A stretch of 64,000 nucleotides of DNA from Gammaproteobacteria bacterium (GCA_038922795.1 JBCKWI010000001.1:24033-88032), one strand, 5' to 3'; numbered from the stretch's first letter, positions 1 to 48,685 are shown. Numbers and translations are program-made. The notes: generated from the letters alone by a model not told the origin.

Positions 1-445
1 ATTTTCTGAGTAGCGCAATGATTGCGGAAGGATCAGTGGCCGATAATATTGCCCCGGTCAACAATGCGGCAATCCAGGGGAACCCTGAAGGATGATCAAT
101 TCCGTAATAGACGCCGATGGCAATGATACCGGCAGATACCAGTAATAACGGCAATGTGAGCATGAAAACCGGCAGGATATTTTCCCTGAGCGCCCGGACA
201 TCCGTCATGATCGCCGCCTGAAAAATCAATATGGGCAATATAAGGTGGATGATTAACGGCCTGAAATTCTCCCAGTTGATTCCAATATCAATACCAAAAC
301 CTCTGGTTGCGATTTCGGAACTGCCATATCCAAGTATTATCAGGAAAATACTGAACGGGATTTTCAGCTTTTCAATCAAGGGGGCGAGGAGCGCCGCCAC
401 CAGAAGCAGCAGCATGAAAAATACGAAAGCATTAACGCTCAGCAT
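1..445 (-). CDS. Cation:proton (Na+/H+) antiporter, CPA1/NhaP-like, N-terminal 148 codons; gene continues past the left edge
   Basis: Own translation of the minus strand from ATG at 445: MLSVNAFVFFMLLLLVAALLAPLIEKLKIPFSIFLIILGYGSSE...LLTGAILSATDPSAIIALLRK. It consists of hydrophobic helices and has the SATDP motif typical of CPA1 exchangers. It is absent from the ORF track because there is no stop in the window. Track ORF 231..455(+) is its antisense shadow. Confidence 0.6.
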   Translation of the reverse strand, partial: MLSVNAFVFFMLLLLVAALLAPLIEKLKIPFSIFLIILGYGSSEIATRGFGIDIGINWENFRPLIIHLILPILIFQAAIMTDVRALRENILPVFMLTLPLLLVSAGIIAIGVYYGIDHPSGFPWIAALLTGAILSATDPSAIIALLRK

Positions 446-506
446 TACAACATGACCACCAGGAAACGATACATCCCTGTAACTTCTCCACAAGTCTTAA
501 CACAAA

Positions 507-1124
507 TCATGTTTTACGGTAGTGACGCGCTATCCAGTAGTCGACACTGATATATTTTCCTCCGCCAAGGAAAAACAAGGCCAGCAGCATAATAAAATAT
601 GTGGCTGCCCATTCGATGCCGTTATTTGAGACCACAAAATTACCATGTTCAGTCAGCCAGCTGTAATTACCATGTTCTTTCAGGATATCCCTGGCTCGGC
701 CCAGACGTTCGATGGCTTCACCGGCATGGACCGACGCATGCGGACTCATCGGATCATGAATGGCCTGCCAGCCATTATCGATATGAACCGCCACAGCAGC
801 CACAACCATGGTGATCATCAACGGTATGCATATCCAGCGTGTGGCCAGTCCCAGTGCCAGCAGGATGGCGCCAAAATATTCCGCGGACCAGGCTATGTAG
901 GCATTCAGGACAGGGAAAGGCAGTTTCAGGCCATGCTCAAACCATTGAATGACGGAATCCAGCGAACTGTTGCTGTCAAACGGATTCCACTTGTTATTAC
1001 CCGCCACCCAGAAGATGGGCACCAGATAAACACGCAGCAGTAATGAGCCAATAAATGCGAAGTGCTCACGGATCTTGTCGAGGATACCCTGTGCGAGACC
1101 CAGTAATCGGATTAAAGCTGTCAT
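507..1124 (-). CDS. DoxX family membrane protein (HvfX-like accessory of the RiPP operon)
   Basis: Track ORF 507..1148. The internal ATG at 1124 is preferred because GGAGGAG lies just upstream. The protein is multi-TM and DoxX-like (LLLRVYLVPIFWVAGNNKW, AEYFGAILLALGLATRW). It is the last gene of the co-directional cluster 507..4790. Confidence 0.7.
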   Translation of the reverse strand: MTALIRLLGLAQGILDKIREHFAFIGSLLLRVYLVPIFWVAGNNKWNPFDSNSSLDSVIQWFEHGLKLPFPVLNAYIAWSAEYFGAILLALGLATRWICIPLMITMVVAAVAVHIDNGWQAIHDPMSPHASVHAGEAIERLGRARDILKEHGNYSWLTEHGNFVVSNNGIEWAATYFIMLLALFFLGGGKYISVDYWIARHYRKT

Positions 1125-1180
1125 CTCTCCTCCATTAGTTAATTGCATGTAGCTAATCTTTTGAGTCTTGAATCATTTTT

Positions 1181-2701
1181 TCAGGTAACTGATTTCACGG
1201 AATCGCGGCCCACATCGGGATGTAATCTGTACAGGGCCATAGACAGACCATTATCGGTCACTATCCGCGCATGATCACGCCGTAACTGCCGCGGACTTTC
1301 AACGCCGCAGGAATGCGCAAGAGTCCCGACCTCCTTGACCATATTTTTCTGATAGTGCATCACCCGCACCGCCTTTTCCTCCGGCACCAGTCCATGTTGC
1401 AGTTTCTTGTTATGGGTTGTAATGCCGGTCGGACAGGTATTTTTGTTACATTGCAACGCCTGTATACAACCCAGGGCAAACATAAAGCCACGGGCGGAAT
1501 TGATAAAATCAGCACCGATGCAAAGTGCCCAGGCCACATCGGCAGGCGTGACGAGTTTTCCGGAGGCAACGACCTTGACCCGGTCGCGTAGACCATGCTC
1601 ATTCAGTTTATCGACCAGCATGGGCAGGCTTTCGCGCAATGGCAGTCCCATATCATCCATTAATGGCATGGGCGCGGCACCCGAACCGCCTTCGGCGCTG
1701 TCAACCGTAATAAAATCGGGCGCGCTCTCAATACCACGTTTGTTTATTTCGGTGAACAGTTCATCGAGCCAGACAGAAGAACCTATCACCGCCTTGTAAC
1801 CGGTCGGCAAGCCGGTCACGTTACGGATATGATCGATCATGTCCAGCAGTTGCTGGTTGTCGGCAATCTCCGGAAAACGGTTCGGGCTGATGGAATCCTC
1901 GCCCGCCGGGATACCACGTATGCGTGCGATCTCTTCTGTGACCTTGCCGCCCGGCAATATCCCGCCCTTACCCGGTTTGGCGCCCTGACTTAATTTGATC
2001 TCGAACATTTTAATCTGCGGATGACTGGCCAGTTCCCGTAATTTGTCATCGCAGAGATTTCCATTCAGATCACGCACGCCATATTTTGCGGTTCCCATCT
2101 GGAACACAATATCGGCGCCACCTTCGAGATGATAGGGGGACAAACCACCCTCTCCTGTATTCATCCAGCAACCTGCCATGCGTGCCCCATTGGATAATGC
2201 GAGAACGGCAGGCATTGAGATGGCGCCATAGCTCATAGCGGATATATTGAAGAATGAGGATGTGGTATAGGGTTTTCTGCTATCGGGGCCGACGGTGACC
2301 TGCTCCGGTTCAACTGCATCTATACCCAGTGTGGGGAAAGGGCAATTGACGAACAGTACCGTCCCGGGCACCCTCAGATCGCGGGTAGAACCAAAGGCAA
2401 TGGTGTTATCGAGGTTCTTTGCGGCGCGGTAGACCCAGGAACGTTGCGCCCGGTTGAACGGCATCTCTTCCCGATCCATGGCGAAGAAATACTGGCGGAA
2501 AAATTCGCCCAGCTTTTCGAAGAAATAACGGAAATGACCAACAACGGGATAATTGCGTCTTATCGCATGTTTGGTCTGGCTGACGTCGAGTATATAGACA
2601 ATGATGACCGCAATAACCGCGACCCCGACCATAAATACAAACAACGCCACCAGGAACTCAAGGGTGACAAACAAAAAACTTTGGAATTGCTCCGATATCA
2701 T
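1181..2701 (-). CDS. FMN-binding glutamate synthase family protein (GltB domain-2-like), N-terminal membrane anchor
   Basis: 506 aa. An N-terminal TM helix is followed by RNYPVVGHFRYFFEKLGEFFRQYF, NTGEGG, KLSQGAKPGKGGILPG and DSAEGGSGAAP, motifs I recognise from stand-alone glutamate-synthase-like FMN enzymes. Confidence 0.8.
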   Translation of the reverse strand: MISEQFQSFLFVTLEFLVALFVFMVGVAVIAVIIVYILDVSQTKHAIRRNYPVVGHFRYFFEKLGEFFRQYFFAMDREEMPFNRAQRSWVYRAAKNLDNTIAFGSTRDLRVPGTVLFVNCPFPTLGIDAVEPEQVTVGPDSRKPYTTSSFFNISAMSYGAISMPAVLALSNGARMAGCWMNTGEGGLSPYHLEGGADIVFQMGTAKYGVRDLNGNLCDDKLRELASHPQIKMFEIKLSQGAKPGKGGILPGGKVTEEIARIRGIPAGEDSISPNRFPEIADNQQLLDMIDHIRNVTGLPTGYKAVIGSSVWLDELFTEINKRGIESAPDFITVDSAEGGSGAAPMPLMDDMGLPLRESLPMLVDKLNEHGLRDRVKVVASGKLVTPADVAWALCIGADFINSARGFMFALGCIQALQCNKNTCPTGITTHNKKLQHGLVPEEKAVRVMHYQKNMVKEVGTLAHSCGVESPRQLRRDHARIVTDNGLSMALYRLHPDVGRDSVKSVT

Positions 2702-2763
2702 GGACTGTACCCCGGCTGATGATCAGTATCAGATTATTATTGGAATCTTCCTGCCTGACTGGC

Positions 2764-3528
2764 TTATTTTACGCCCAGCAGGATATCTTTCTGTAAGAAA
2801 TTCTGCATAGTTTCAAGACCACCCCTGATCACGACTTCGAGGTTGGGGTGTTTGAGTTCTGCTGCAATGCTTTCAAGAAGTCCGCGGCCAGTCTGGCCGG
2901 TATCCATCTGGATCATCTCCAGCAGACGGGCGGAAACCGGGTTCAATTCGGTAAAACCTACCTTATGATGACGGTCGCGATAAACCACGATGTAAGTGGG
3001 TTGGCCAGGCGCCTCCTGTGGCTGTAACGCCGGGCTGATGGTATGGACAGGGAATTGATAGCTCAATGGCAAGGCCAGCGGGCTCATGACCGGTATGCCT
3101 TCCAGTAAATCACCGGCTGGATTGATGCCTGTCCAACTGATGTCCCGGGTATCCAGCGAGACCGCGAGTTCTATCCATTCGTAATGGGCCAGTTCCAGCA
3201 GGAAGGGTGGGTCATCTTCCGCATCGCGTTCCTGTTCCAGGTATTGCAGGAATTCCCGCGGCATCTTCGGGAATAACGGGGTGTGCGCCCGGTGGCGTTT
3301 GAAATAATCGCGGATCATCGCATGCCAGCGATCATCTGGGGTAATCTTGCGTAATACCGGAAAACTGTTGGCGATAAATCCTTCTACATTACGGTACAAC
3401 AGACCCCGGTAGATCTCCATGCGGCGGTCTTCAATATCCGGTGGGGCCGGTTGATTTTCCGGATCACGAATATGCCGGGTGAATCCGTACTGTATCTCCT
3501 GGAAACGGGGTTTAGGCGTGATGGGCAT
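2764..3528 (-). CDS. hvfC: DUF2063 domain protein, HvfC/BufC-type RiPP maturation partner
   Basis: Track ORF 2764..3582. The start is placed at ATG 3528 ([24 protein letters not shown]), which overlaps the upstream MNIO gene by 17 nt. Size and N-terminal pattern fit DUF2063, and it sits immediately after a DUF692 gene. Confidence 0.7.
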
Positions 3529-4378
3529 GTGTGTCTTTTGTTTCCTTTTGATACCTTCGCTGCATACTGGAGATCTGTTCAACTTCTTTCAGGAGTATTC
3601 CCAGCGGCGGGATATTGAAGTCACGTTCAAGCAGGGTCGGAAACACACCGAAATGTGCATAGGCCTTTGCCAGTAAATCCCATACCGGATCGATCACATC
3701 GGAACCGTGGGTATCGACCCGCAGATCCTCGGCCTCTACGTAATGGCCGGCTATATGGGCATAGGCGATGCGCTCACCGGGCAAGGACTGCAGAAAGGTT
3801 TCCGCATCATAACGATGGTTGATGCTGTTGACATAGATATTGTTGATATCGAGATGCAGATAACAATCCGCTGCTTCAAGAACAGCATTGATGAATTCGA
3901 TTTCCGGCATCTCCTGGCCGGGTGCTGCATAGTAGGAGACGTTCTCAATTGCCATGCGCCGCCCGATGATGTCCTGGGTACGCCGGATACGTTCTGCAAC
4001 ATAGTGCACGGCTTCTTCAGTAAACGGGATGGGCATGAGGTCATACAGATGACCGTCATCCGCGCAATAGCTCAGGTGTTCGCTGTAACAACGGATGCTA
4101 TGGGTATCCAGAAATTGACTGACCTTGTGCAGGAATGCCTCATCCAGCGGCGCGGGACCGCCCAGATTCAGTGAGAGACCATGACAGACAATAGGGATGC
4201 GTTCAGATATTGCCCGGAACAGATGACCGTAACGGCCGCCGACATCGATCCAGTTCTCCGGGGCAACCTCCATGAAATCAATTTGTGTAGGAAATTGATC
4301 TGCGAGCGGGCCGATGAAGGCCCGCCGCAGACCCAGACCTGCACCCCTTACAGGATACTTGCTGTTATCGGGGGGCAT
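3512..4378 (-). CDS. hvfB: DUF692 / multinuclear non-heme iron oxidase (MNIO), HvfB/BufB-type peptide maturase
   Basis: Track ORF 3512..4678 is over-extended into the precursor repeat. The true ATG is at 4378 ([21 protein letters not shown]...). DUF692 motifs present: [45 protein letters not shown]. Confidence 0.85.
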
Positions 4379-4403
4379 GGCGTTGTAACCAGACAAAGCC
4401 TGA

Positions 4404-4790
4404 TTATTTACCCCCGCCTTCAGCCTTGCCTTCGCCTTCAACCTTGCCTTCGCCGCACTTGCCTTCGCCTTCAGCCTTGCCTTCACCGCACTTGCCTTCG
4501 CCTTCAACCTTGCCTTCGCCTTCAGCCTTGCCTTCACCGCACTTGCCTTCGCCTTCAGCCTTGCCTTCACCGCACTTACCTTCGCCGCACTTGCCTTCGC
4601 CTTCAGCCTTGCCTTCAACCTTTTTCTCTTCACCGCACTTGCCTTCTTCGGCAACCATGTAACCGCTGGACAGGTCATTCAGTGCAAACGGATTTTCGGC
4701 AGCCTGAACGATGATCGGGCTGGCAGCCAGGGATACAACAAAGGTGGTGCCAAGGGCTGCTGCGATGGGTTTTAAAGTCTTCTTGCTCAT
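4404..4790 (-). CDS. hvfA: RiPP precursor, HvfA / EGKCG-repeat class (secreted Cys-containing metallophore precursor)
   Basis: 128 aa. The Sec-type leader is [30 protein letters not shown]|AE. The core is made of E/G/K/A/V residues with six Cys, each in G-K-C-G-E (residues 52, 68, 73, 84, 101, 112). A GAGGA RBS lies upstream. The MNIO gene starts 25 nt downstream. Confidence 0.85.
4407..4652. repeat. Periodic coding repeat (15/30-nt units) encoding the [11 protein letters not shown] core of the precursor
   Basis: Reiterated gccttcgccttcagccttgccttcaccgcacttgccttc units. They produce spurious long ORFs in other frames and on the other strand ([20 protein letters not shown]). Confidence 0.9.
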
Positions 4791-4814
4791 TGAGGATTCC
4801 TCTTGGGATTTTTG

Positions 4815-4836
4815 AAAAAAAGGCCATTTCTGGCCT
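4815..4836 (-). terminator. Intrinsic-terminator-like hairpin (AGGCCA-gaaa-TGGCCT followed by T7 on the minus strand)
   Basis: Minus strand reads AGGCCAGAAATGGCCTTTTTTT. It lies about 160 nt downstream of the lysS stop and only 24 nt upstream of the hvfA ATG. The stem is short (6 bp). Confidence 0.45.
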
Positions 4837-4995
4837 GGTTAAAACCATGGTAAGGGAACAATCAGTCCTTCCCTCTATGTGATTAATTAATTTAACGGAA
4901 ACCAGTGTTGTAACTGTTACATCAATATATTTAACACTTGCCTATAGACTCACATTAACTCCAAATGTTTCAATCAACAGGGAATATTCATGCCC

Positions 4996-6480
4996 TTATT
5001 TGGGGCGCATGTGTGGAAACAGGATGACATCCCGTATGGAGGGAGAATCAGTCAGCAACATAACCAGCCGATCTATGCCGATACCTTCGCCGGCCGCAGG
5101 TGGCATGCCATATTCCAGCGCTGTAATGTAATCGGCATCATAGTGCATTGCTTCATCATTACCGGAATCCCTATCCTCCACCTGTTTGCGGAAACGCTCT
5201 GCCTGGTCATCCGGATCGTTCAGTTCGGAGAAACCATTGGCTATCTCTCGGCCACCGATAAATAACTCAAACCGGTCAGTCACGTCAGGATCGGTATCCG
5301 AACGACGGGCCAGTGGTGAGACCTCGGTTGGATAGGCGGTAATGAAAGCAGGTTGTTTGAGGTTGGGTTCCACCGTCTTTTCAAAAATCTCGATCAGGAC
5401 CTTGCCGGGACCGTCATTATTTTCAACAGGGATATCGAGATTCCGGGCAACAGCGCACAATGATTCCAATGATTCAAGATCACCGGTATGGAGCCCCTGA
5501 TTAAATTTCAGGACAGCCTCTTTTACAGTCATGTTCTCGAATGGCTGGCCCAGGTCATAGGATTCACCCTGATAACGGATTTTTGTATCACCCAGGACTT
5601 CCTGCGCCAGGCCCTTTATCATAGCCTCCGTCAATATCATGAGGTCACGGTAACCGGCATAGGCCTGGTAAAATTCCAGCATCGTGAACTCAGGATTATG
5701 CCGCGGCGACAATCCTTCATTGCGAAAACTGCGGTTGATCTCGAACACCTTTTCTATCCCGCCCACGACCAGACGCTTCAGATAAAGCTCCGGCGCAACA
5801 CGTAAATACATTTGCATATCCAGTGTATTGTGATGAGTGATGAACGGGCGGGCGGTGGCGCCACCGGGAATCACCTGCAACATGGGAGTTTCTACCTCGA
5901 TAAATCCTGAGTCCCTGAGATAGCTGCGGATAAAATCAATCGTCTTTGACCGAATGGCAAAAGTACGGCGTGTTTCTTCGTTGGTGATTAAATCCAGATA
6001 ACGCTGCCGGTAACGGGTTTCATGATCGGTCAGGCCATGGAATTTTTCCGGCAATGGCCGCAGGGATTTTGCCAGCAGCTCGATGTGATTAACGTGTACG
6101 GAAAGTTCACCGGTTTTTGTTTTAAACAATGTCCCTTCAGCGCCAAGGATATCACCCAGGTCCCATTGCTTGAATTCGTCATATTGTCCTTCCGGCAGAT
6201 CATCACGTTTCACATAGATCTGTATACGGCCGGACATATCCTGCACATGGGCAAAAGCAGCCTTGCCCATAATACGGCGTGTCATCATGCGGCCTGCAAT
6301 CTTGACATTGACCGCCAGTTGCCCAAGCTCCGCCTGGTCCTTGCCTGTAAATTCAGCATGTAAATCCGCAGCCAATGCATTGCGCCGGAAATGATTAGGG
6401 TAGGCATTGCCTTTCTCACGCAACTGCTGCAACTGTGCACGTCGTTGAGCTATCAGATCGTTATCGTTGTTATCAGACAT
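4996..6480 (-). CDS. lysS: Lysine--tRNA ligase (class II)
   Basis: Track ORF 4996..6525. The start is placed at ATG 6480 ([29 protein letters not shown]), which excludes the upstream repeat element. Class II motifs are present ([35 protein letters not shown]). Confidence 0.95.
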
Positions 6481-6790
6481 ATATGGTATTTGGTATGTAG
6501 TAGATGGTATATGGGGACTAATCACTATTTACCGTCGTGTATAGTTTATTCAACATTTTAGCAACTGATTCAATTTCCAATAATTGTTGATTATCAATTT
6601 GTAAATAATCCAAATCTCCGCAGAGAATAAAATAATATCTCAGTTCCTCTGTATGCCGATATACGTTCAGGACTATATTATGTGCCAGCCTCCAGACTTC
6701 CAGTTGCTTAAAATTATTTATCGTCATCTGTGACTCCTCTCCTTATTAATCTCATATCCCAACTACCATATCCCAACTACCACCTACTAC
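6481..6790. repeat. Palindromic GGTAG/CTACC element, copy 1, carrying a four-helix-bundle gene remnant
   Basis: Left arm 6481..6516: atatggtatttggtatgtagtagatggtatatgggga. Right arm 6752..6790: tcatatcccaactaccatatcccaactaccacctactac. The arms are inverted relative to each other and bracket ORF 6518..6727. Confidence 0.7.
6518..6727 (-). pseudogene. Four-helix-bundle (23S rRNA intervening-sequence type) protein gene, internally deleted
   Basis: 69 aa. The N-terminus FKQLEVWRLAHNIVLNVY and the C-terminal EELRYYFILCGDLDYL...VAKMLNKL match the ends of the ~120-aa family. The central FP..E....Q.RRAA.SI..NIAEG segment is missing. Confidence 0.55.
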
Positions 6791-7885
6791 AGTCCGCTTT
6801 TAAGACTTGCCTCAATAAACCGGTCCAAATCACCATCCAGTACCGCCTGGGTATTCCCCGTTTCAACTCCGGTACGCAGGTCCTTAATGCGGGATTGATC
6901 CAGCACGTATGATCTAATCTGGCTGCCCCAGCCGATATCAGCCTTGGCATCTTCCTGCGCCTGTTTCGCTGCATTGCGTTTCTGCATTTCAAGCTCATAC
7001 AGCTTGGCACGCAACTGGCTCATGGCCTGGTCCTTGTTTTTGTGTTGCGAGCGCTGGTTCTGGCATTGTACAACGATACCAGACGGGTTATGAGTAATAC
7101 GCACTGCTGAATCGGTCTTGTTGACGTGCTGCCCGCCTGCCCCGCTGGATCGGTAGGTATCAATGCGCAGATCAGCCGGGTTAATCTCGATATCAATCGT
7201 CTCATCGACTTCCGGTGATACAAACACCGAGGCAAACGAAGTATGCCGGCGGTTGTTGGAATCAAAAGGGGATTTACGCACGAGTCGGTGCACGCCCGTT
7301 TCAGTGCGCAGCCAACCGTAGGCATAATCCCCTGCATATTTAATCGTCGCACTCTTGATCCCGGCAACTTCACCGGGGGATATTTCGATCAATTCCGTAT
7401 TGAAACCATGCTGTTCCCCCCAACGCAGATACATGCGCAATAACATCTCGGCCCAGTCCTGGGCTTCAGTCCCGCCGGAACCGGATTGAATATCGAGATA
7501 GGCATTATTGGCATCCATCTCACCGGAAAACATGCGGCGGAACTCCAGTTCCTCGACTTTCTTTTCATATTTGTCAACGTCCTTCGCTACCGCCTGAACT
7601 GTGTCAGCATCCTTTTCCTCGGCGGCAATGGACAATAATTCAGAGGCATCGCGTAATCCCTCTTCTATTTCACGGATATAATCAACGATGAGTTCCAGAG
7701 ACGCGCGTTCTTTGCCCAGTGACTGGGCACGCTCGGGATTGTCCCATATCTTTGGTACAGCCAGTTCGTGCTCGACTTCTACCAGCCGCTCAGCCTTGTT
7801 GTCATAGTCAAAGATACCCCCTAAGGGAAGTCACTCGTTCCCGCAGATCCTTGATCTGGGCTAAAACCGGGTTGATCTCAAGCAT
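6787..7885 (-). CDS. prfB: Peptide chain release factor 2, requires programmed +1 frameshift at 7810
   Basis: Frame 0 runs 7885..7811 ([25 protein letters not shown]) and ends at an in-frame TGA. The +1 frame runs 7809..6787 (341 codons including stop, continuous with track ORF 6787..7635). It contains the SPF and GGQ motifs (SGAGGQHVN). Confidence 0.95.
7807..7822 (-). promoter_or_regulatory. prfB +1 frameshift site: AGGGGG TAT CTT TGA C
   Basis: Minus strand reads CTT AGG GGG TAT CTT TGA CTA TGA C. This is the canonical internal SD-like AGGGGG, the slippery CUU and the UGA-C context. Confidence 0.9.
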
Positions 7886-7960: not shown

Positions 7961-8020
7961 GTAGGAGCGGGCCATGCCCGCGAAAGATGTTTTTTCATCG
8001 CACGCAAGGCGTGCTCCTAC
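7961..8020. repeat. REP-type hairpin, family GTAGGAGC...GCTCCTAC, copy 1
   Basis: gtaggagcgggccatgcccgcgaaa...cgcacgcaaggcgtgctcctac. The terminal arms are inverted. Confidence 0.8.
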
Positions 8021-8062: not shown

Positions 8063-8117
8063 GTAGGAGCGTGCCGTGCACGCGAAAATGCATATCGCAT
8101 GCAGGGCATGCTCCTAC
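8063..8117. repeat. REP-type hairpin, family GTAGGAGC...GCTCCTAC, copy 2 (overlaps recJ stop)
   Basis: gtaggagcgtgccgtgcacgcgaaaatgcatatcgcatgcagggcatgctcctac. Confidence 0.8.
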
Positions 8118-36456: not shown

Positions 36457-38064
36457 ATGCCAACGCTGAACTGGATCGGAAAAGAGGCGGTGGTGAATCA
36501 TCACCTGCAAGTCCCGTTTCATCTCCTTAAAGACGTTCTTGATCTTTCCTGTGGCGATCCGGGCAGCGGCAATCTCATCGTACAAGGTGATAATCTCGTC
36601 GCGCTCAAGGCACTGCTTCCGTATTACGCCGGACAGGTGAAGTGCATCTATATCGATCCACCCTACAATACCGGCAATGAAAACTGGGTCTATAACGATA
36701 ATGTGAACAGCCCCGTGATCCGTGAATGGCTGGGCAAAGTCGTGGGGAAAGAAGGAGAAACACTGGATCGGCACGACCGCTGGTTATGCATGATGTATCC
36801 ACGCCTTGCATTGCTGCGGCAGTTTCTGCGGGAAGACGGAGCGATTTTCATCAGTCTGGATGACAATGAAATTCAATCAATCAGAAATTTAATGGATGAG
36901 ATATTCGGTAGAGAGAATTTCCTGGCAACAATCATATGGCAAAAGAGGACTTCTCCAGATGCTCGGTTAAATTTAGGGCCTGCGCATGATTACATAGTTG
37001 TATATTCAAAAAATCTGAATCTGTTAAAACCTACTCTCAATAAAATCCCTCCAGGTGGAGAACGCGTAAAGGCATATAAAAACCCTGATAATGATCCTCG
37101 TGGAGTTTGGGCCTCTGTCGACATTACAGGACAAACTGGACACGCAACACCAGAACAATTTTACGAAATTGTTACCCCATCAGGATTGCGATTGAAACCA
37201 CCGAAGGGAAGATGTTGGGCAATGGCACAAAAAACAGTTATCGAACTTATCAAAGATAATCGCATTTGGTTTGGAAAGGATGGTAAATCACGTCCAAGAT
37301 TGAAAAAATTCCTCTCTGAAACTGAAGGTGTAACTGCTTGGACTTGGTGGCCAAACTCAGAAGTTGGTCACAATCAAGAAGCTACAAAAGAATTAAATGA
37401 AATAATGCAGAGTGCTGATGTTTTCGATAATCCTAAACCTAGTCGATTGATTCAGCGTATTTGTGGACTTGCCACAGATAAAGAATCAATAGTTCTGGAT
37501 TCATTTACTGGCTCTGGGACAACAGGCCATGCAGTTTTGAATTTAAACAAAGAGGATGGCGGCAACCGTAAATTTATTCTTGTGGAAATGGAGCCTTACA
37601 TTGCCCGTGAAGTGACTTCCGAACGCATACGCCGTGTAGCTGAAGGTTATATGAATACAAAAGGTGAGAAAGTGGAAGGACTCGGCGGTGGTTTCCGTTA
37701 TTGTGAACTCGGAGAACCTTTATTTGATGAAAACGGCAAGATCCGATCATCCGTAACCTTCGGTGAACTGGCCCGGCATGTGTATTTCACCGAGACCGGA
37801 GAACCCTTGCCGCGTGAGCGTGTACCGAATACGCCGTTTCTGGGTGAATGCCGGGGTGTAGGCATTTATCTTTTATATAACGGCATACTCAAGGATAAAA
37901 GCGCGAATGGCGGCAATATGTTGACACGCAATATGCTCGCGCAACTTCCACCCTTTGACGGGCAGAAGGTAATTTACTGTGCCGGTTGTCTGCTGGGCCG
38001 GGATCGTTTGCAGGCAGAACGCATCATCGTGCGACAGACACCATATGAGATTAAGGTGAGTTGA
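36457..38064 (+). CDS. mod: Type III restriction-modification system methyltransferase (Mod), beta-class N6A/N4C MTase
   Basis: 535 aa. Motif IV DPPYNTG precedes motif I DSFTGSGTTGHA. It is followed, after two small genes, by a Res-type helicase-nuclease. Confidence 0.85.
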   Translation: MPTLNWIGKEAVVNHHLQVPFHLLKDVLDLSCGDPGSGNLIVQGDNLVALKALLPYYAGQVKCIYIDPPYNTGNENWVYNDNVNSPVIREWLGKVVGKEGETLDRHDRWLCMMYPRLALLRQFLREDGAIFISLDDNEIQSIRNLMDEIFGRENFLATIIWQKRTSPDARLNLGPAHDYIVVYSKNLNLLKPTLNKIPPGGERVKAYKNPDNDPRGVWASVDITGQTGHATPEQFYEIVTPSGLRLKPPKGRCWAMAQKTVIELIKDNRIWFGKDGKSRPRLKKFLSETEGVTAWTWWPNSEVGHNQEATKELNEIMQSADVFDNPKPSRLIQRICGLATDKESIVLDSFTGSGTTGHAVLNLNKEDGGNRKFILVEMEPYIAREVTSERIRRVAEGYMNTKGEKVEGLGGGFRYCELGEPLFDENGKIRSSVTFGELARHVYFTETGEPLPRERVPNTPFLGECRGVGIYLLYNGILKDKSANGGNMLTRNMLAQLPPFDGQKVIYCAGCLLGRDRLQAERIIVRQTPYEIKVS

Positions 38065-38082
38065 GAAGTGACTAACTTAACT

Positions 38083-38156
38083 GTCATTTCGAGCGTAGCG
38101 AGAAATCTGTATTTCAAATTTATAACCACAAGATTTCTCCCTTCGGTCGAAATGAC
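38083..38156. repeat. REP-type hairpin, family GTCATTTCGA...TCGAAATGAC, copy 2
   Basis: gtcatttcgagcgtagcgagaaatct...agatttctcccttcggtcgaaatgac. Confidence 0.8.
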
Positions 38157-38188
38157 ACGAACTAATTTCCAGAGATTACTTTAATACC

Positions 38189-38386
38189 ATGGTAAATATC
38201 AGAGAAATAGTAGAGCAGTTCAACGAGGATGAAGCGGTGTGGCGTTGTTATGAAGCCATACGCAAACTACGCCGGAAACCGGGCACGACTTTATCGTTGC
38301 CGGAAGAGGTGCTTGATCATCTCGATTGGCTGGAAGCGGAGCGGGAATGCCGCGAACAACATTACAACAACAGGAGGGACCCATGA
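38189..38386 (+). CDS. Small hypothetical protein, translationally coupled to the ORF6N gene
   Basis: 65 aa. Its stop overlaps the next start (ATGA at 38383..38386). I recognised no motif. Confidence 0.45.
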   Translation: MVNIREIVEQFNEDEAVWRCYEAIRKLRRKPGTTLSLPEEVLDHLDWLEAERECREQHYNNRRDP

Positions 38387-38964
38387 AGCAATCGCAATTG
38401 ATTGAATTTCTAATCTTCACCATACACGGCCATAAGGTTTTGCTGGATGCTGATCTGGCACGGTTATATGGCGTAGCAACTAAACGGTTTAACGAGGCAT
38501 TCAAACGTAACCGGCAACGATTTCCAGATGATTTCGCCTTTCAACTTACTGCTGCAGATCTCGCAAACTTGAGGTCACAATTTGCGGCCTCAAGATTGCA
38601 AGCCGCTGAAAATCCTGAAGATATGGCGAACTGGTCGCAATTTGCGACCAGTTCGAGCCGTCATCGAGGTGCAACATATCGCCCATGGGCCTTTACCGAG
38701 CATGGAGCACTGATGGCCGCCAATATCCTGCGCAGCAAGCAGGCCGTTCATATGAGCATTTACGTGGTTCGCGCATTTGTGAAACAGCGTGAGCAAATTA
38801 CAGCGAATGCCGCCATATTCAAACGCCTCGCTGAAATTGACAAAACCTTGTTGCAACATGATTCCACCCTGCGCGATATTTACCGTAAACTCATGCCGCT
38901 GCTGCAACCGCCACCTGAACCTCCTAAACGGCGCATCGGATTCATTACGGATGACGATAAATGA
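38383..38964 (+). CDS. ORF6N domain-containing protein (KilA-N-related DNA-binding)
   Basis: The start is placed at ATG 38383 after AGGAGGG. HGHKVLLDADLARLYGVATKRFNEAFKRNRQRFPDDFAFQLT and YRPWAFTEHGALMAANILRSKQAV are classic ORF6N. Its stop overlaps the res start (ATGA). Confidence 0.8.
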   Translation: MKQSQLIEFLIFTIHGHKVLLDADLARLYGVATKRFNEAFKRNRQRFPDDFAFQLTAADLANLRSQFAASRLQAAENPEDMANWSQFATSSSRHRGATYRPWAFTEHGALMAANILRSKQAVHMSIYVVRAFVKQREQITANAAIFKRLAEIDKTLLQHDSTLRDIYRKLMPLLQPPPEPPKRRIGFITDDDK

Positions 38965-41633
38965 TTACGCTTAAGGATTATCAGATACGTGTGCTGGAAT
39001 CGCTAGGCGAGTTCTTCCGGCTGACGGTTAAAAAGCGTGATCCGCATATTGCCTTTGAGGACGTGACCCGGCGCACTTTTCAGGAACCTGCCCCCTATCT
39101 TCCAAATCCTGCTGGCCTGAATTCAGAAATGCCCTATGTCTGTCTTAGGGTTCCCACGGGTGGAGGCAAGACACTGTTGGCGTGTTATGCAGCGGGATTG
39201 GCGAAGAATGAATTGTTGCATGGAGAACATGCGGTGGTGTTGTGGTTGGTGCCGAGCAATACGATTCTGGATCAGACCGCGGATGCCTTGCGTGATCCCC
39301 GGCATCCATACCGGCGGGCGCTGGCACTGGCCTGTGGCGCCGTTGAAGTCATGACGATAGAAGAAGCATTGCGGGTGTCGCGTGCCACAGTGGATGGACA
39401 GACCGTCGTTATCGTCTTGACCATACAATCATTTCGTGTTGAGGATACTACTGGCCGCAGGGTATATGGACAGAACGGCGCTTTTGCCGAACACTTGCTG
39501 AATGTGCCTGCTGATCGTATTGCTGATCTGTTACCGGGTGCAGATGGCAAACCCTTACCCTCATTAGTCAATATGCTGCGGCTGCGCCGTCCGATTGTCA
39601 TTGTGGATGAGGCACATAATGCACGCACTGATCTCTCATTCAACACACTGAGCGGTGTATTGCCCTCCTGCATCATAGAATTCACTGCAACTCCAGCCCG
39701 TGAAGGTAATCCTTCGAATGTTTTGCATCATGTGTCAGCAGCAGAATTGAAAGCCGCAGATATGATCAAACTTCCCTTGCGTGTTGTGACCCGGCATCCG
39801 AGCCAGCGCGATCAATTGCTTGCTGAAGCCATTACGCTGCGCAGCGACCTTGAAAAACTGGCTATATCCGAAGCACAACAGACCGGTGAATACCTGCGGC
39901 CAATCATGTTGATTCAGGCGGAGCGGGTGGATGGATGCGAACCCTTGCGTGAACGTATGGTAAACGAATTTGGCCAAGTGAAGGATGAAATAAAGATATC
40001 GGTGGGTTCTCTGGATGAACTGAAGGATTTAAAAGATATCGATTCTCCAAAATGCCCGGTGCGATTCATTATCACGGTGCAGAAACTACGAGAGGGTTGG
40101 GATTGTCCGTTTGCGTATGTCTTGTGCAGCCTCAAAGAATCGCGTTCTGCTACTGCGATTGAACAGATTGTCGGGCGTATTCTGCGATTGCCCTCTGCGC
40201 GTTTGAAACGACATCCCGATCTTAACTGTGCATATGCACTTTCAGTTTCTGATTCGCTGCCTGAGGTTTTAAATGAACTGAAAGAAGCGCTGGAAAGCAA
40301 TGGATTTACACCGGCAGAGGCTGATCGAATCATCATTCCTGTCCCACAGGGTGTTTTACCGCTTGGGTTGCAACCACAGACACTAAAAGTGGGGCTGGAA
40401 GAAATTGATACTGTAGTAGCTCAGTCACAAGAGACAGCATTCGCGGGAAAGGTGCGAATAGATACTGCTAAAGGTGAGATCACAGTGATTGTCCCGCTGG
40501 ATGATAGCGAGACAGAAAAGCTTACGAATTGTGTCAAGACACCTGAGGCAAAGGCAAAAGTGCGTGAAATAGCTGAGCTTGTACGGGAAGCGGAAAAGGC
40601 CTTTGGTGGTAGCGGCAAAACACGCATGCCTACACCTTATGAGAGGCGTTTGGATTTTGCCGTGCCGTTGTTATGTGTATATGAAAACGGAAAATTATTC
40701 GATTTTGAAAGTACTTTTCTGATGGAACACGCATGGAAACTCAGTGAAAAAGACGCTTCACTTTCTCAAGGATATAACCCAATGAAACGACCTGTGGGAG
40801 AAGCTGGGTATCTGGATGTGGGTGCAAAAGGCGAAGTGCAGAGTAATGTGATTCAGGCACCTGAAGGTGATTTTGTGACTACACTGCATCAACATGTGCT
40901 GGCCTTTGGAGAGTCCAATGATTGGACACTGGAAATGCTGGTTGCATGGCTGGATAGTCATATTGATCACACAGATATTCCGGCAGGTGAATCGGCGGAA
41001 TTCATGCGTAAAGCGATCCGCGGGTTAATGGCGAAATATGGCATCACGGATATGGGTATACTGGCACTGGATCGCTTTCGTCTGCGCGATAAGATAACGG
41101 CACGCATTCAGGAACATAGAGACAGTGAACGCAAGGCGGCGTTCCGGCAATTCCTGTTACCTGGCTCGTCGCTGACCGTCAGTGATGAGCGAGTCCTTAG
41201 TTTCAAGTCCATGACTTATGAACCAAGCCGGCTCTATGAGGGCGGTTTCCAGTTCAAGAAACATTACTTCGGTCCGAAACCCGGTGAATTGCAGGAAAAA
41301 ACCCGAGGCGGAGAACTGACTGAAGAATTTAAATGTGCACAATTTATTGATGGAAAGGCAGAAGTAGAATTCTGGGTACGCAACCTTGCACGAAAAAATA
41401 CTTCTTTCCGCCTGCAAACATCAACCGACTGGTTTTATCCGGATTTTGTCTGCCAGCTCACGGACGGTCGCGTTCTCGTGGTGGAATATAAAGGCAAGGA
41501 CCGTTATACGGGGGAAGATGCGGAAGAAAAACGTGCGGTTGGTGCTGTGTGGGCAGCACGCAGTAAAGGACGCTGTTTGTACGTCATGCCGACTGAAGGT
41601 AACTATTCAACAATCACTACAGCAATTAAGTAA
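38961..41633 (+). CDS. res: Type III restriction enzyme Res subunit (SF2 helicase + C-terminal PD-(D/E)xK nuclease)
   Basis: 890 aa. Motif I is VPTGGGKT and motif II is VDEAHN. The C-terminal nuclease-like segment is YPDFVCQLTDGRVLVVEYKG. Confidence 0.85.
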   Translation: MITLKDYQIRVLESLGEFFRLTVKKRDPHIAFEDVTRRTFQEPAPYLPNPAGLNSEMPYVCLRVPTGGGKTLLACYAAGLAKNELLHGEHAVVLWLVPSNTILDQTADALRDPRHPYRRALALACGAVEVMTIEEALRVSRATVDGQTVVIVLTIQSFRVEDTTGRRVYGQNGAFAEHLLNVPADRIADLLPGADGKPLPSLVNMLRLRRPIVIVDEAHNARTDLSFNTLSGVLPSCIIEFTATPAREGNPSNVLHHVSAAELKAADMIKLPLRVVTRHPSQRDQLLAEAITLRSDLEKLAISEAQQTGEYLRPIMLIQAERVDGCEPLRERMVNEFGQVKDEIKISVGSLDELKDLKDIDSPKCPVRFIITVQKLREGWDCPFAYVLCSLKESRSATAIEQIVGRILRLPSARLKRHPDLNCAYALSVSDSLPEVLNELKEALESNGFTPAEADRIIIPVPQGVLPLGLQPQTLKVGLEEIDTVVAQSQETAFAGKVRIDTAKGEITVIVPLDDSETEKLTNCVKTPEAKAKVREIAELVREAEKAFGGSGKTRMPTPYERRLDFAVPLLCVYENGKLFDFESTFLMEHAWKLSEKDASLSQGYNPMKRPVGEAGYLDVGAKGEVQSNVIQAPEGDFVTTLHQHVLAFGESNDWTLEMLVAWLDSHIDHTDIPAGESAEFMRKAIRGLMAKYGITDMGILALDRFRLRDKITARIQEHRDSERKAAFRQFLLPGSSLTVSDERVLSFKSMTYEPSRLYEGGFQFKKHYFGPKPGELQEKTRGGELTEEFKCAQFIDGKAEVEFWVRNLARKNTSFRLQTSTDWFYPDFVCQLTDGRVLVVEYKGKDRYTGEDAEEKRAVGAVWAARSKGRCLYVMPTEGNYSTITTAIK

Positions 41634-47320: not shown

Positions 47321-48685
47321 TTAATCCCAGCCGCTATCAATACTGATATCGTCAGTAGTCTTTGTAATGTCTTTTTCATCATAGATATGATTGACCACAC
47401 CCTCTTCATCGATTTTCCAGGTGACAATGGCGTTGTAATGGAAGAACCCGTGCCGGCCGCGCTCCGCAATCAATTTATCGCGTTCCGGTTGCACATAGCC
47501 GGTCTCATCCGTGGCACGGCTTTTCAGAATGGCCGGTTTGCCATTCCATTGCCAGGGAACACGGAAGCGGGTAAGTGACTGTGATAATACTGGTTCCTGC
47601 AATTCCGCCTCGGCCCAGCTCTTGCCGCCGTCAGCCGAGACCTCGACCTCTTTGATCTTGCCACGGCCGGACCAGGCCAACCCGGTGATCTGATACAGGC
47701 CGGGTTGTTTCAGGATCATATTCGCTGAAGGTGAAGTAATGAGCGACTTGGCTTCCATGACAAAAGTAAACATCCGTGCCTTGCCGTCCGGTTGCAATTC
47801 CGTATAGCGTGAGGTCTCATTGCGCGCCATGATCGGTTTGTCCGTGGCCTTCAACCTTCGCAACCATTTTACATTCAGTACCCCTTCCCAGCCGGGCAAG
47901 ATTAACCGTAAGGGATAACCATTTTCCGGGCGTATGCGCTCGCCATTCTGGTACAAGGCAAGCATGCCGTCCTGCATCGCCTTTTCGATCGGGATGCTGA
48001 TGTTCATGGCAAAGGCATCCGCGCCTTCCGTGATCAACCATTTAGCTTTTTCGGTGACACCCACTTCATTCAATATTGTTGCGAGCGGCACGCCAGTCCA
48101 TTCACTGCAGGAGACCAGCCCGTGAAAATAACCGGCCTCCGCTTTTGCTGGTGATTTATTCCAGCCCGCGTTACTGTTGCCGCCGCATTCCACAAAACAG
48201 ATGCGTGACTGCATCGGATAACGCAACAGATCTTCGATGTTGAAAAATGAAGGGTTCCTGACCAGACCATGGATCAGCAATTTGTGTTGTGCCGGATCGA
48301 CCTGCGGTACACCGTTATGATGGCGCTCAAAATGCAAACCGCTCGGGGTAATAGTCCCCTCCAGTTTATGCAGTGGTGTCCATGACACACCGTTGCCACT
48401 GACGTCGCGGTTGGCCGTCGGGAATCTCACCACCTCATCTTCATATTTCGACGGTGTGCCATAAATCGAAAACGGCGCGCCGGGTTCATGCAGCCACGGT
48501 GGATTGGCAGGATCAATTGGTGAATCAATATCTTTGGCGGAAATTACTTTGGGAACTGCTGATGCGGCAAGAGTCGCAACACTGAAGGTCAGGCCGGTTT
48601 TCAGAAACAGGCGCCGGTCCAAAAGACCGTTGCCGGCGATTGATTGTAAATCATCAACATCAGGCATATGTGGATTTTTTTTCAT
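47321..48685 (-). CDS. Molybdopterin-dependent sulfite dehydrogenase/oxidase family catalytic subunit (SorA/SoxC-like), Tat-exported
   Basis: 454 aa with a twin-arginine leader (LLDRRLFLKTGLTFSVATLAA). Sulfite-oxidase-family segments are present (ECGGNS, YPLRLILPGWEGVLNVKWLRRL). Confidence 0.75.
   Translation of the reverse strand: MKKNPHMPDVDDLQSIAGNGLLDRRLFLKTGLTFSVATLAASAVPKVISAKDIDSPIDPANPPWLHEPGAPFSIYGTPSKYEDEVVRFPTANRDVSGNGVSWTPLHKLEGTITPSGLHFERHHNGVPQVDPAQHKLLIHGLVRNPSFFNIEDLLRYPMQSRICFVECGGNSNAGWNKSPAKAEAGYFHGLVSCSEWTGVPLATILNEVGVTEKAKWLITEGADAFAMNISIPIEKAMQDGMLALYQNGERIRPENGYPLRLILPGWEGVLNVKWLRRLKATDKPIMARNETSRYTELQPDGKARMFTFVMEAKSLITSPSANMILKQPGLYQITGLAWSGRGKIKEVEVSADGGKSWAEAELQEPVLSQSLTRFRVPWQWNGKPAILKSRATDETGYVQPERDKLIAERGRHGFFHYNAIVTWKIDEEGVVNHIYDEKDITKTTDDISIDSGWD

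Follow-up and report, generated by a model that had tools for sequence, protein, structure and literature searches.

The window analyzed here, a 64,000-nucleotide (nt) stretch of DNA from a Gammaproteobacteria bacterium (GCA_038922795.1, JBCKWI010000001.1:24033-88032), begins with a run of minus-strand genes that we read, with a probability of about 0.85 judging from the encoded proteins, as a captophorin-type operon for a peptide that is synthesized ribosomally and modified post-translationally (RiPP), of the oxazolin/fontiphorin kind and located on the chromosome of an uncultured gammaproteobacterium. From its promoter-proximal end, the cluster consists of genes for a precursor peptide, the MNIO enzyme HvfB, its DUF2063 partner HvfC, a membrane-anchored protein with the flavin mononucleotide (FMN) domain of glutamate synthase, and the DoxX membrane protein HvfX (Table 1). 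A preliminary description of the same DNA had proposed an Hvf/EGKCG-class MNIO RiPP operon, and this proposal holds with four NCBIfam models (NF003818, NF050145, NF050144 and NF050137) scoring above their cut-offs. It had also suggested searches with the DUF692, DUF2063, DoxX, Glu_synthase and Hvf profiles and named a missing DUF692 or DUF2063 match as an argument against itself; all four Pfam profiles were matched.

Family membership was judged on the curated equivalog cut-offs of NCBIfam, with Pfam as a second source. The MNIO matches PF05114 (DUF692) with an E-value of 5e-103 and scores 440.8 against a cut-off of 360 on the HvfB model NF003818. The closest characterized enzyme is FonB, which is 65% identical over 271 residues, and among solved structures the H. 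somni DUF692 protein 3BWW comes nearest (E 2e-75). In the alignment with 3BWW, the His-, Asp- and Glu-bearing motifs HGLS, EHLS, IEN, HLDxNN, HIAGH, DTHG and LLERD are kept; such motifs carry metal ligands in MNIOs. HvfC combines PF09836 (DUF2063, E 8e-24) with PF22106 (NGO1945_C, E 5e-30) and reaches 308.6 on NF050145, for which the cut-off is 142. HvfX matches PF07681 (E 5e-19) and NF050144 (209.8 against 80), has hydrophobic segments at residues 30-50, 92-125 and 177-202 in a hydropathy scan, and by its family assignment is a conserved membrane component of the class. With an HvfB-type MNIO, an adjoining PME1 partner, a Sec precursor carrying GKCG repeats and HvfX all present, the locus belongs, on sequence grounds and in intact form, to the oxazolin/fontiphorin branch of MNIO-PME1 RiPPs.

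The precursor was described earlier as a 128-residue minus-strand open reading frame (ORF) with a Sec-type leader and a core of E, G, K, A and V in which six cysteines always stand in G-K-C-G-E, and each of these points is confirmed. We judged the signal peptide by its n-, h- and c-regions, the -3/-1 rule and conservation over 86 loci. The n-region reads MSKKTLK, a hydrophobic stretch covers residues 9-31 by hydropathy, and the predicted cleavage site V28-Q29-A30↓A31-E32 (the VQA↓AE junction of the earlier description) agrees with the -3/-1 rule, with an A-x-A↓(A/E/D)(E/D)NPF junction recurring across the 86 homologous precursor loci. The N-region that follows is common to FonA and to essentially all 86 recovered relatives. 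Residues 47-128 are drawn exclusively from A, E, G, K, C and V, and the cysteines at positions 52, 68, 73, 84, 101 and 112 all lie inside G-K-C-G-E. Only C68 and C73 form a GKCGEGKCG doublet, the remaining four being placed in single EGKCG units between units that lack cysteine. The corresponding DNA contains tandem repeats with periods of 33, 51 and 84 nt and a match of 84-91%, which indicates that the core was built by recent duplication. On the HvfA-family domain model NF050137 the precursor scores 37.1 (cut-off 19.5), and its architecture recurs directly upstream of hvfB-hvfC in the 86 related loci, where the number of cysteines ranges from 2 to 16 and the spacer types vary. The suggestion that six sites and long E/G/K spacers set this locus apart as a variant is not sustained, given six sites in HvfA, seven in FonA and 2-16 cysteines in the relatives.

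Related loci collected in this work carry L numbers. In the closest relatives (L001:4504-4794 and 4961-5287; L087:6146-6965; L089:313-1028), there are two tandem precursor paralogues with differing cores, compared with one precursor in the window. The 5' end and leader of the window precursor resemble paralogue 1, while its core is a distinct, recently duplicated array. In addition, EF-hand-like DxDGDG motifs occur inside EGKCG precursors at L017:4911-5462, L018:4973-5635, L029:3982-4500, L032:4147-4581 and L117:5413-5904. These belong to the known Buf_EGKCG/EF-hand fusion type, here with EGKCG units on both flanks.

Gene identities, gene order, intactness and purifying selection can be read directly from the locus. 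Six co-directional genes lie on the minus strand within positions 1-4955 of the window, and the intergenic distances, in order from the precursor, are 25, -17, 62, 32 (or 56) and 61 nt. The preliminary description had likewise counted five co-directional genes with gaps of at most 62 nt, the MNIO gene starting at ATG 4378, 25 nt past the precursor, and a 17-nt overlap between the DUF2063 and MNIO genes; the coordinates agree on every count, and MNIO homologues align from residue 1. For hvfX, the start at ATG 1124 is more likely than that at 1148 because a Shine-Dalgarno sequence, GGAGGAGAG, precedes it and because the 84%-identical homologue in L001 begins with MTALIRLL; the gap between the FMN gene and hvfX would then be 56 nt, still within 62 nt. 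From the precursor to hvfX there are five genes and four gaps, none of which holds a terminator-like site according to a terminator scan. All five genes are under purifying selection, with a ratio of nonsynonymous to synonymous substitution rates (dN/dS) of 0.10-0.18 against the nearest relative contig (0.16 for hvfB, 0.15 for hvfC and 0.10 for the FMN gene). A 388-residue ORF at 3512-4678 was rejected as an alternative-frame artefact of the repeat, as were plus-strand ORFs at 4181-4714 and 4426-4662 as frame artefacts of the precursor repeat.

The five genes of the earlier operon call stand, but its extent probably does not. A gene for a Na+/H+ exchanger starts 61 nt past hvfX and is 90.5% identical in frame translation to its L001 homologue; the fragment in the window matches PF00999 (E 8.5e-15) and, partially, TIGR00831. 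The same exchanger gene is positioned after hvfX, or after the FMN gene, in 19 related loci. It is probably the sixth gene of the transcription unit, which would run past the window start, and both the FMN gene and the exchanger are probably co-transcribed with the hvf genes.

Table 1. Positions of the features of the locus, counted from the first letter of the window, and gene orders in related loci (A, precursor gene; B, hvfB; C, hvfC; X, hvfX; FMN, FMN-domain protein gene; NaH, Na+/H+ exchanger gene)
Feature	Position or loci	Strand	Remarks
Precursor gene, HvfA-family	4404..4790	-	128 residues
Signal peptide	4701-4790	-	residues 1-30
Conserved 16-residue N-region	4653-4700	-	residues 31-46
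Repeat core with six Cys	4407-4652	-	residues 47-128
hvfB, MNIO	3512..4378	-	288 residues from ATG 4378
hvfC, DUF2063 + NGO1945_C (PME1)	2764..3528	-	254 residues
Gene for membrane-anchored glutamate-synthase-FMN-domain protein	1181..2701	-	506 residues; between hvfC and hvfX
hvfX, DoxX membrane protein	507..1124	-	ORF opens at 1148; likelier start ATG 1124
Na+/H+ exchanger (CPA1-type) gene	1..445	-	first 148 codons; cut by window edge
Terminator-like match	4811..4836	-	G+C-rich hairpin AGGCCAGAAATGGCCT and U-run; end ~20 nt before the Shine-Dalgarno sequence of the precursor
Conserved upstream block	4910..4955	-	possible extended -10 TGTTAAATA and 13-nt palindrome TGTAACAGTTACA (4909-4921); candidate promoter/operator, weak lead
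Order A-B-C-FMN-X	window, L001, L003, L007, L028, L032, L050, L062, L078		
Order A-B-C-X-FMN	L016-L018, L020, L053		
Order FMN-X-B-C	L029, L030, L058, L086, L150		
Order A-B-FMN-X-C	L075		gamma proteobacterium HTCC5015
Interval lysS-FMN-argG	L014, L024		
Interval lysS-A-B-C-X-argG	L088		
Interval lysS-A-B-C-X-NaH-argG	L097		
Interval lysS-A-B-C-FMN-NaH-argG	L008		

Among characterized systems, the nearest is fontiphorin FonABC of Fontimonas thermophila (PMC13097082). Besides the similarity of FonB, FonA shares with the window precursor a Sec signal peptide, a ...DLxxGYMVA N-region and EGKCG repeats, and the system has a PME1 (DUF2063) partner; its own product bears 5-thiooxazoles and binds copper. 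The fon cluster is listed as A, B and C alone, whereas the window adds DoxX and the FMN gene, and the seven sites of FonA are arranged in GKCGEGKCG doublets and a triplet as opposed to one doublet and four single units. Oxazolin HvfXABC of nontypeable Haemophilus influenzae (NTHi; PMC11252979) has the same four core families, and HvfB, HvfC and HvfX of the window pass the corresponding equivalog cut-offs; HvfA and the window precursor are alike in having six candidate cysteines in (E)GKCG units and a Sec signal peptide. The gene order differs, being X-A-B-C in NTHi and A-B-C-FMN-X-(Na+/H+ exchanger) in the window, and the oxazolin of NTHi comes from a pathogen while the window belongs to an environmental gammaproteobacterium. 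Bufferin clusters (BufABC; PMC11626156, PMC12452194) also join an MNIO, DUF2063 and DoxX to Sec-exported precursors of the DUF2282 or Buf_6/12Cys types, whose cysteine-derived 5-thiooxazoles buffer copper, and the same logic would apply to the window. An assignment to the bufferins themselves was rejected, as the MNIO scores 260 on the BufB model NF050167 (cut-off 310), the precursor has no Pfam match to DUF2282, and no sigma/anti-sigma (NrsF) genes are found nearby in the window. Methanobactin MbnABC is similar in that an MNIO acts on cysteines of a ribosomal peptide to give a copper ligand. It was rejected as well: MbnC stands there in place of the DUF2063 partner, the precursor carries a leader peptide and not a Sec signal, the groups are true oxazolone/thioamide, and the window MNIO scores 38.4 against 325 on the MbnB model TIGR04159.

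The chemistry of the class is known from these systems. NTHi HvfA has a 24-residue signal peptide and three cysteine-bearing motifs, and all six motif cysteines are modified by HvfB and HvfC to a product that binds Cu(I); the modification was first assigned as oxazolone/thioamide (PMC11252979). In 2026, it was reassigned to 5-thiooxazole by an independent group and by the original authors (bioRxiv 10.64898/2026.06.05.730506, 10.64898/2026.07.17.739211; PMC13097082), based on alkylation by iodoacetamide (IAA), on HNCO nuclear magnetic resonance with the Cys C1-Gly N bond intact, and on a lack of degradation products at +18/-44 Da. Bufferin, bulbicupramide, fontiphorin, gonophorin and oxazolin now make up one class under the name captophorins. 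The background given in the preliminary description is therefore right in that MNIO/DUF2063 pairs turn cysteine into a copper ligand, and superseded in its oxazolone/thioamide assignment for HvfA. The 5-thiooxazole signature that we use as a class criterion consists of a loss of 4 Da, an absorbance maximum at 302-305 nm and an alkylatable thiol. FonB has been shown experimentally to install 5-thiooxazoles on EGKCG repeats (PMC13097082), and in vitro FonBC modified a two-repeat peptide and left a one-repeat peptide unmodified. HvfB is O2-dependent and active as a mixed-valent diiron Fe(II)/Fe(III) enzyme, and HvfBC depends on added reductant in vitro. A collection of approximately 2,000 Buf_EGKCG/oxazolin precursors, 31-506 residues long, has been assembled (PMC12452194), and 21,424 captophorin precursors have been charted, with EGKCG as the commonest repeat. 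HvfX/DoxX is present in 67.8% of such clusters, its function being stated there as unknown (PMC13097082 Table S1).

On the model of these systems, to which every chemical and physiological step for the window owes its place by homology, the 128-residue precursor would be made in the cytoplasm and acted on there by HvfB, as an O2-dependent iron enzyme, in complex with HvfC. The conserved N-region of the precursor is the probable docking site of HvfC, and HvfB would oxidize EGKCG cysteines to 5-thiooxazoles with a loss of 4 Da each, at up to six sites. Sec export and cleavage by signal peptidase I after VQA30 would then release a mature peptide of 98 residues, rich in Glu, Gly and Lys, acidic and flexible, which may bind periplasmic Cu(I) through thiooxazole N/S and thereby buffer copper. 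The earlier proposal of an exported peptide with up to six copper-binding heterocycles is supported by homology as the central reading, and 'up to six' is the right wording. The chemistry and copper binding of the class on which this scheme draws are described in PMC11252979, PMC13097082 and bioRxiv 10.64898/2026.06.05.730506 and 10.64898/2026.07.17.739211.

Conversion of the cysteines to methanobactin-like oxazolone/thioamide pairs was the original assignment for HvfA (PMC11252979) and still stands in the names of the NCBIfam models; we regard it as highly improbable, since the original authors and an independent group have both moved oxazolin to 5-thiooxazole, and the MNIO of the window, far below the MbnB cut-off, is 65% identical to FonB. 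It is also unlikely, though less so, that the peptide is modified as proposed and serves a role other than copper buffering, such as handling another thiophilic metal or calcium, or in redox or signalling. That EF-hand Ca2+ domains are joined to some precursors of the family (L017, L018, L029, L032 and L117, and also in PMC12452194), that the metal specificity of 5-thiooxazole peptides is stated in the literature to be incompletely assessed, and that no copper regulator or copper-resistance gene appears among the annotated window genes would all fit such a role, but oxazolin, fontiphorin and the bufferins that were examined all bind Cu(I) or protect against copper stress. We retain copper buffering by 5-thiooxazoles as the proposed function.

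Several observations weigh against our assignment of the locus as an operon for an oxazolin/fontiphorin-type copper peptide. The strict HvfA equivalog model NF050188 gives the precursor 23.5 against a cut-off of 95, so that it fails there, and the N-region lacks a cysteine pair comparable to the C38/C43 disulfide pair that aids recognition of NTHi HvfA; the three-motif layout of HvfA is also missing. By its sequence the precursor is a member of the family but not an HvfA orthologue. Given that FonBC left the one-repeat peptide unmodified, the four single EGKCG units imply that fewer than six sites may be converted. A scan of 20 window proteins revealed neither a copper regulator nor a copper-resistance gene. 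The terminator-like hairpin at 4811-4836 stands just upstream of the precursor, and no sigma-70 promoter was called between lysS, the preceding gene, and the precursor.

The hairpin appears in the minimum-free-energy fold with a z-score of -2.0 and is conserved in L001, and an analogous hairpin with a T-run precedes each of the two precursor genes in L089. The distance from the hairpin to the start codon leaves no room for a promoter, so that the transcript has to start upstream of the hairpin and extend across it, and the hairpin would be either an attenuator or a 5'-stabilizing structure. Read-through from lysS, or a promoter within the block at 4910-4955, would account for transcription of the hvf genes. 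This block is almost identical in L001, against an overall identity of 86% across the 189 upstream columns that can be aligned. The palindrome within the block occurs once in the window, but a match also turned up in 10 of 100 shuffles; no exact copies were found in 166 loci. We rejected it as an operator because it is not significant alone and is conserved no further than the closest relative. No Rfam families were detected in the leader or in the whole window at permissive or gathering thresholds.

The protein encoded between hvfC and hvfX matches PF01645 with an E-value of 7e-84 and a Pfam score of 282.6 bits against 20.4. It aligns over ~300 residues with the FMN-binding synthase domain of the glutamate synthase (GltS) alpha subunit in 7MFM and 1EA0 (E 6e-30 to 2e-27; 1EA0 residues 855-1149), including a QGAKPGxGGxLPGxKV loop. 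C412, C418 and C423 (positions 1433-1468; CX5CX4CP motif) fall on C1102, C1108 and C1113 of 1EA0, which we take to be the [3Fe-4S] ligands. In contrast to the GltS alpha subunit, the window protein stands alone, has an N-terminal anchor and lacks the amidotransferase, central and C-terminal beta-helix domains. By hydropathy, its N-terminus is hydrophobic at residues 5-44 (2570-2689), followed by K/R residues, an arrangement that would place the catalytic and cofactor domain in the cytoplasm. Assignment as glutamate synthase itself (GltB) was rejected, with NF008730 scoring 116.8 against 1047 over model positions 861-1163 only and the other domains absent, and no NCBIfam models specific to the FMN protein were found. 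We consider it a PF01645-superfamily member with predicted FMN and [3Fe-4S] cofactors. The preliminary description had listed an FMN glutamate-synthase-family ORF as part of the cluster; its presence stands through the PF01645 match, while membership of the pathway is unproven, the gene being a recurrent facultative neighbor.

We assessed the genomic context of this gene in 86 loci with an FMN homologue, of which 54 were informative, with sufficient flanking DNA and with a full-length copy included in the tree, and in 80 metagenome loci with HvfB relatives of 65-88% identity. The best 80 genome loci with an FMN homologue are 65-83% identical, and the contigs nearest to the locus are from uncultured Gammaproteobacteria; the FMN protein of the window has no exact match on record. 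hvfB/hvfC adjoin the FMN gene in 26 of the 86 homologue loci (23 of the 54 informative ones), and hvf genes are absent by tblastn in 47 of the 86 (31 of 54 with adequate flanks). In a neighbor-joining tree built from the FMN proteins, linked and unlinked copies are interspersed, and Fitch parsimony requires at least 10 state changes. Conversely, the FMN gene was found in 9 of the 80 HvfB-relative loci, or ~6 of the ~33 that have at least 4.5 kb of downstream DNA. When linked to hvf genes, it is almost always directly beside hvfX, in the orders given in Table 1. Between lysS and argG, the FMN gene, the hvf genes and the exchanger gene appear in various combinations (Table 1). The arrangement lysS-A-B-C-X without the FMN gene occurs in L088, L092, L096, L097 and L109, and L008 has the FMN gene in its hvf cluster with hvfX absent.

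In ~20 loci, the FMN gene adjoins a gene for an acetolactate synthase (ALS)-like thiamine pyrophosphate (TPP) enzyme and/or an aldehyde dehydrogenase (ALDH) gene, in several orders and often without hvf or DoxX. The ALS-like gene scores 721 bits against 509 on NF006187, and the ALDH is of the succinate-semialdehyde/lactaldehyde-dehydrogenase type. The entire ALS-ALDH-FMN trio lies inside the hvf operon, between hvfC and hvfX with gaps of 30-70 nt, at L010:4849-9476, L090:2147-6803 and L094:3360-8016. An ALS/ALDH/FMN association was further seen in L013, L029, L030, L035, L041, L042, L054, L072 and L081, and the window contains neither an ALS nor an ALDH gene. In cyanobacteria, an ALS-like 2-oxoglutarate decarboxylase and a succinic semialdehyde dehydrogenase form a bypass of the tricarboxylic acid cycle. 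By analogy, and as a lead, the trio could run from glutamate through 2-oxoglutarate and succinic semialdehyde to succinate.

No entry for PF01645/Glu_synthase was found in the co-occurrence supplements of PMC12452194 and PMC13097082. As one of these surveys lists families down to 8.4%, the family should be present in fewer than 8.4% of MNIO-PME1 clusters. A literature search found glutamate synthase unmentioned in MNIO papers and nothing relevant joining DoxX with glutamate synthase. In L005:10473-13158, a multicopper oxidase and an outer-membrane efflux protein are encoded ~2 kb downstream, on the opposite strand, of an FMN gene that is not linked to hvf; as a single case, this may be coincidental.

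The FMN protein could be a metabolic passenger, that is, a glutamate/2-oxoacid enzyme that perhaps works with the ALS-like TPP enzyme and the ALDH and is co-transcribed with the hvf genes while standing outside peptide maturation, and we hold this to be somewhat more likely than a role as a maturation factor. The large share of homologue loci without any hvf gene, the interspersed linked and unlinked copies, the recurrent pairing with ALS-like and/or ALDH genes, often where hvf and DoxX are both missing, and the occurrence of lysS-FMN-argG without hvf as well as lysS-A-B-C-X without FMN all argue for it. The FMN protein also evolves more slowly than LysS (dN 0.148 versus 0.221 in comparison with L007) and has kept the GltS active-site loop and the cysteine triad for [3Fe-4S], and there is no consistent difference between the precursors of FMN-containing and FMN-free clusters. 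What a passenger explains less easily is that linkage to hvf is seen repeatedly, in four or more gene orders and with differing flanks, that the linked gene is nearly always directly by hvfX, and that the complete trio sits between hvfC and hvfX in L010, L090 and L094, an odd position for an unrelated pathway.

The FMN protein could instead be a working accessory in the RiPP system. As a membrane-anchored protein facing the cytoplasm, it would feed in electrons and, together with HvfX, keep the thiooxazole thiols or copper in the periplasm reduced, or it would supply the reductant with which HvfB reaches its active mixed-valent state. All four orders hold the FMN gene by hvfX, the linkage in 23 of 54 informative loci reflects at least 10 independent gains or losses, and in the window the genes are co-directional with short gaps in which terminator-like sites were not found. 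Moreover, the physiological donor for the reductant-dependent HvfBC is unknown, other EGKCG clusters have membrane redox genes (ferric-reductase and Oxidored_molyb families), and the anchor followed by K/R residues puts the cofactor domain on the cytoplasmic side. The proposal nonetheless stays tentative. The partner is missing from most FMN homologue loci and from ~80% of related hvf clusters, DoxX tracks hvf and not FMN, with no DoxX in ALS/ALDH-FMN loci that lack hvf, and L008 combines FMN with a cluster without hvfX. The family is also absent from both published surveys, and HvfBC and FonBC function in E. coli without an FMN protein. A role as a peptide-tailoring enzyme is much less probable still, as precursors are alike with or without the FMN gene and the gene is found mostly away from hvf. 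The metabolic passenger is therefore the reading that we favor. That the membrane-anchored FMN protein instead serves as a functional accessory in a subset of captophorin operons confined to certain lineages, in some relatives along with the ALS-like TPP enzyme and the ALDH, either donating electrons to the MNIO/HvfX machinery or providing a copper-stress-linked glutamate/2-oxoglutarate bypass expressed together with the copper-binding peptide, is a possibility that we put clearly on the doubtful side.

Upstream of the precursor, lysS, prfB and recJ lie on the same strand. Between prfB and lysS is an insert of ~260 nt with low G+C content (0.42; 6526-6786, minus strand), in comparison with 3 nt between these genes in L001, and repeated GGTAGTTGGGATATG-like motifs flank it. 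Its ORF at 6518-6727 encodes a 69-residue remnant similar to the 23S-rRNA-intervening-sequence/four-helix-bundle protein (PF05635, 21.6 bits, below the cut-off). The prfB gene has a programmed +1 frameshift site, CTT TGA C, at 7807-7813 (minus strand), preceded by an AGGGGG Shine-Dalgarno-like element, and because of this frameshift the ORF list holds only a 282-residue fragment. Two copies of an imperfect palindromic repeat of ~55 nt, resembling repetitive extragenic palindromic (REP) elements, are located between recJ and prfB (7997-8016 and 8094-8113, minus strand), with no others elsewhere in the window. The window otherwise consists of ordinary chromosomal DNA, with thrC, hom, an aminotransferase gene, aroC, htpG and Tad pilus genes, and no tRNA genes were found in a scan. 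A type III restriction-modification pair (N6_N4 DNA methylase and ResIII helicase-nuclease; 36457-41633, plus strand) follows a gene for an AAA_14/DUF4143 ATPase. A sulfite-oxidase-type molybdoenzyme (Oxidored_molyb and Mo-co_dimer) is encoded at 47321-48685 on the minus strand; its Pfam family is a rare accessory of EGKCG clusters, but at a distance of 42 kb it was rejected as part of this one.

The core RiPP system is a new and uncharacterized but ordinary member of a recently described and well-catalogued family. As the family already counts ~2,000 precursors with EGKCG and over 21,000 of the captophorin type and has dedicated NCBIfam models, the core system alone alters the picture little. 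What gives the locus its value is the operon architecture, A-B-C-[FMN]-X in the window or A-B-C-ALS-ALDH-FMN-X in relatives; A-B-C-[FMN]-X is a recurrent architectural variant for which we found no description in the literature that could be searched. Even if the FMN gene is a mere passenger, the locus demonstrates a variable slot between lysS and argG in these gammaproteobacteria, in which hvf, FMN and the Na+/H+ exchanger come and go independently. The role of HvfX/DoxX and the physiological reductant of the MNIO are acknowledged open questions of the field, for which a flavo-iron-sulfur protein repeatedly encoded next to hvfX offers a concrete candidate, and the interest of the locus would rise if the flavoprotein were indeed the missing redox partner of HvfB or HvfX.

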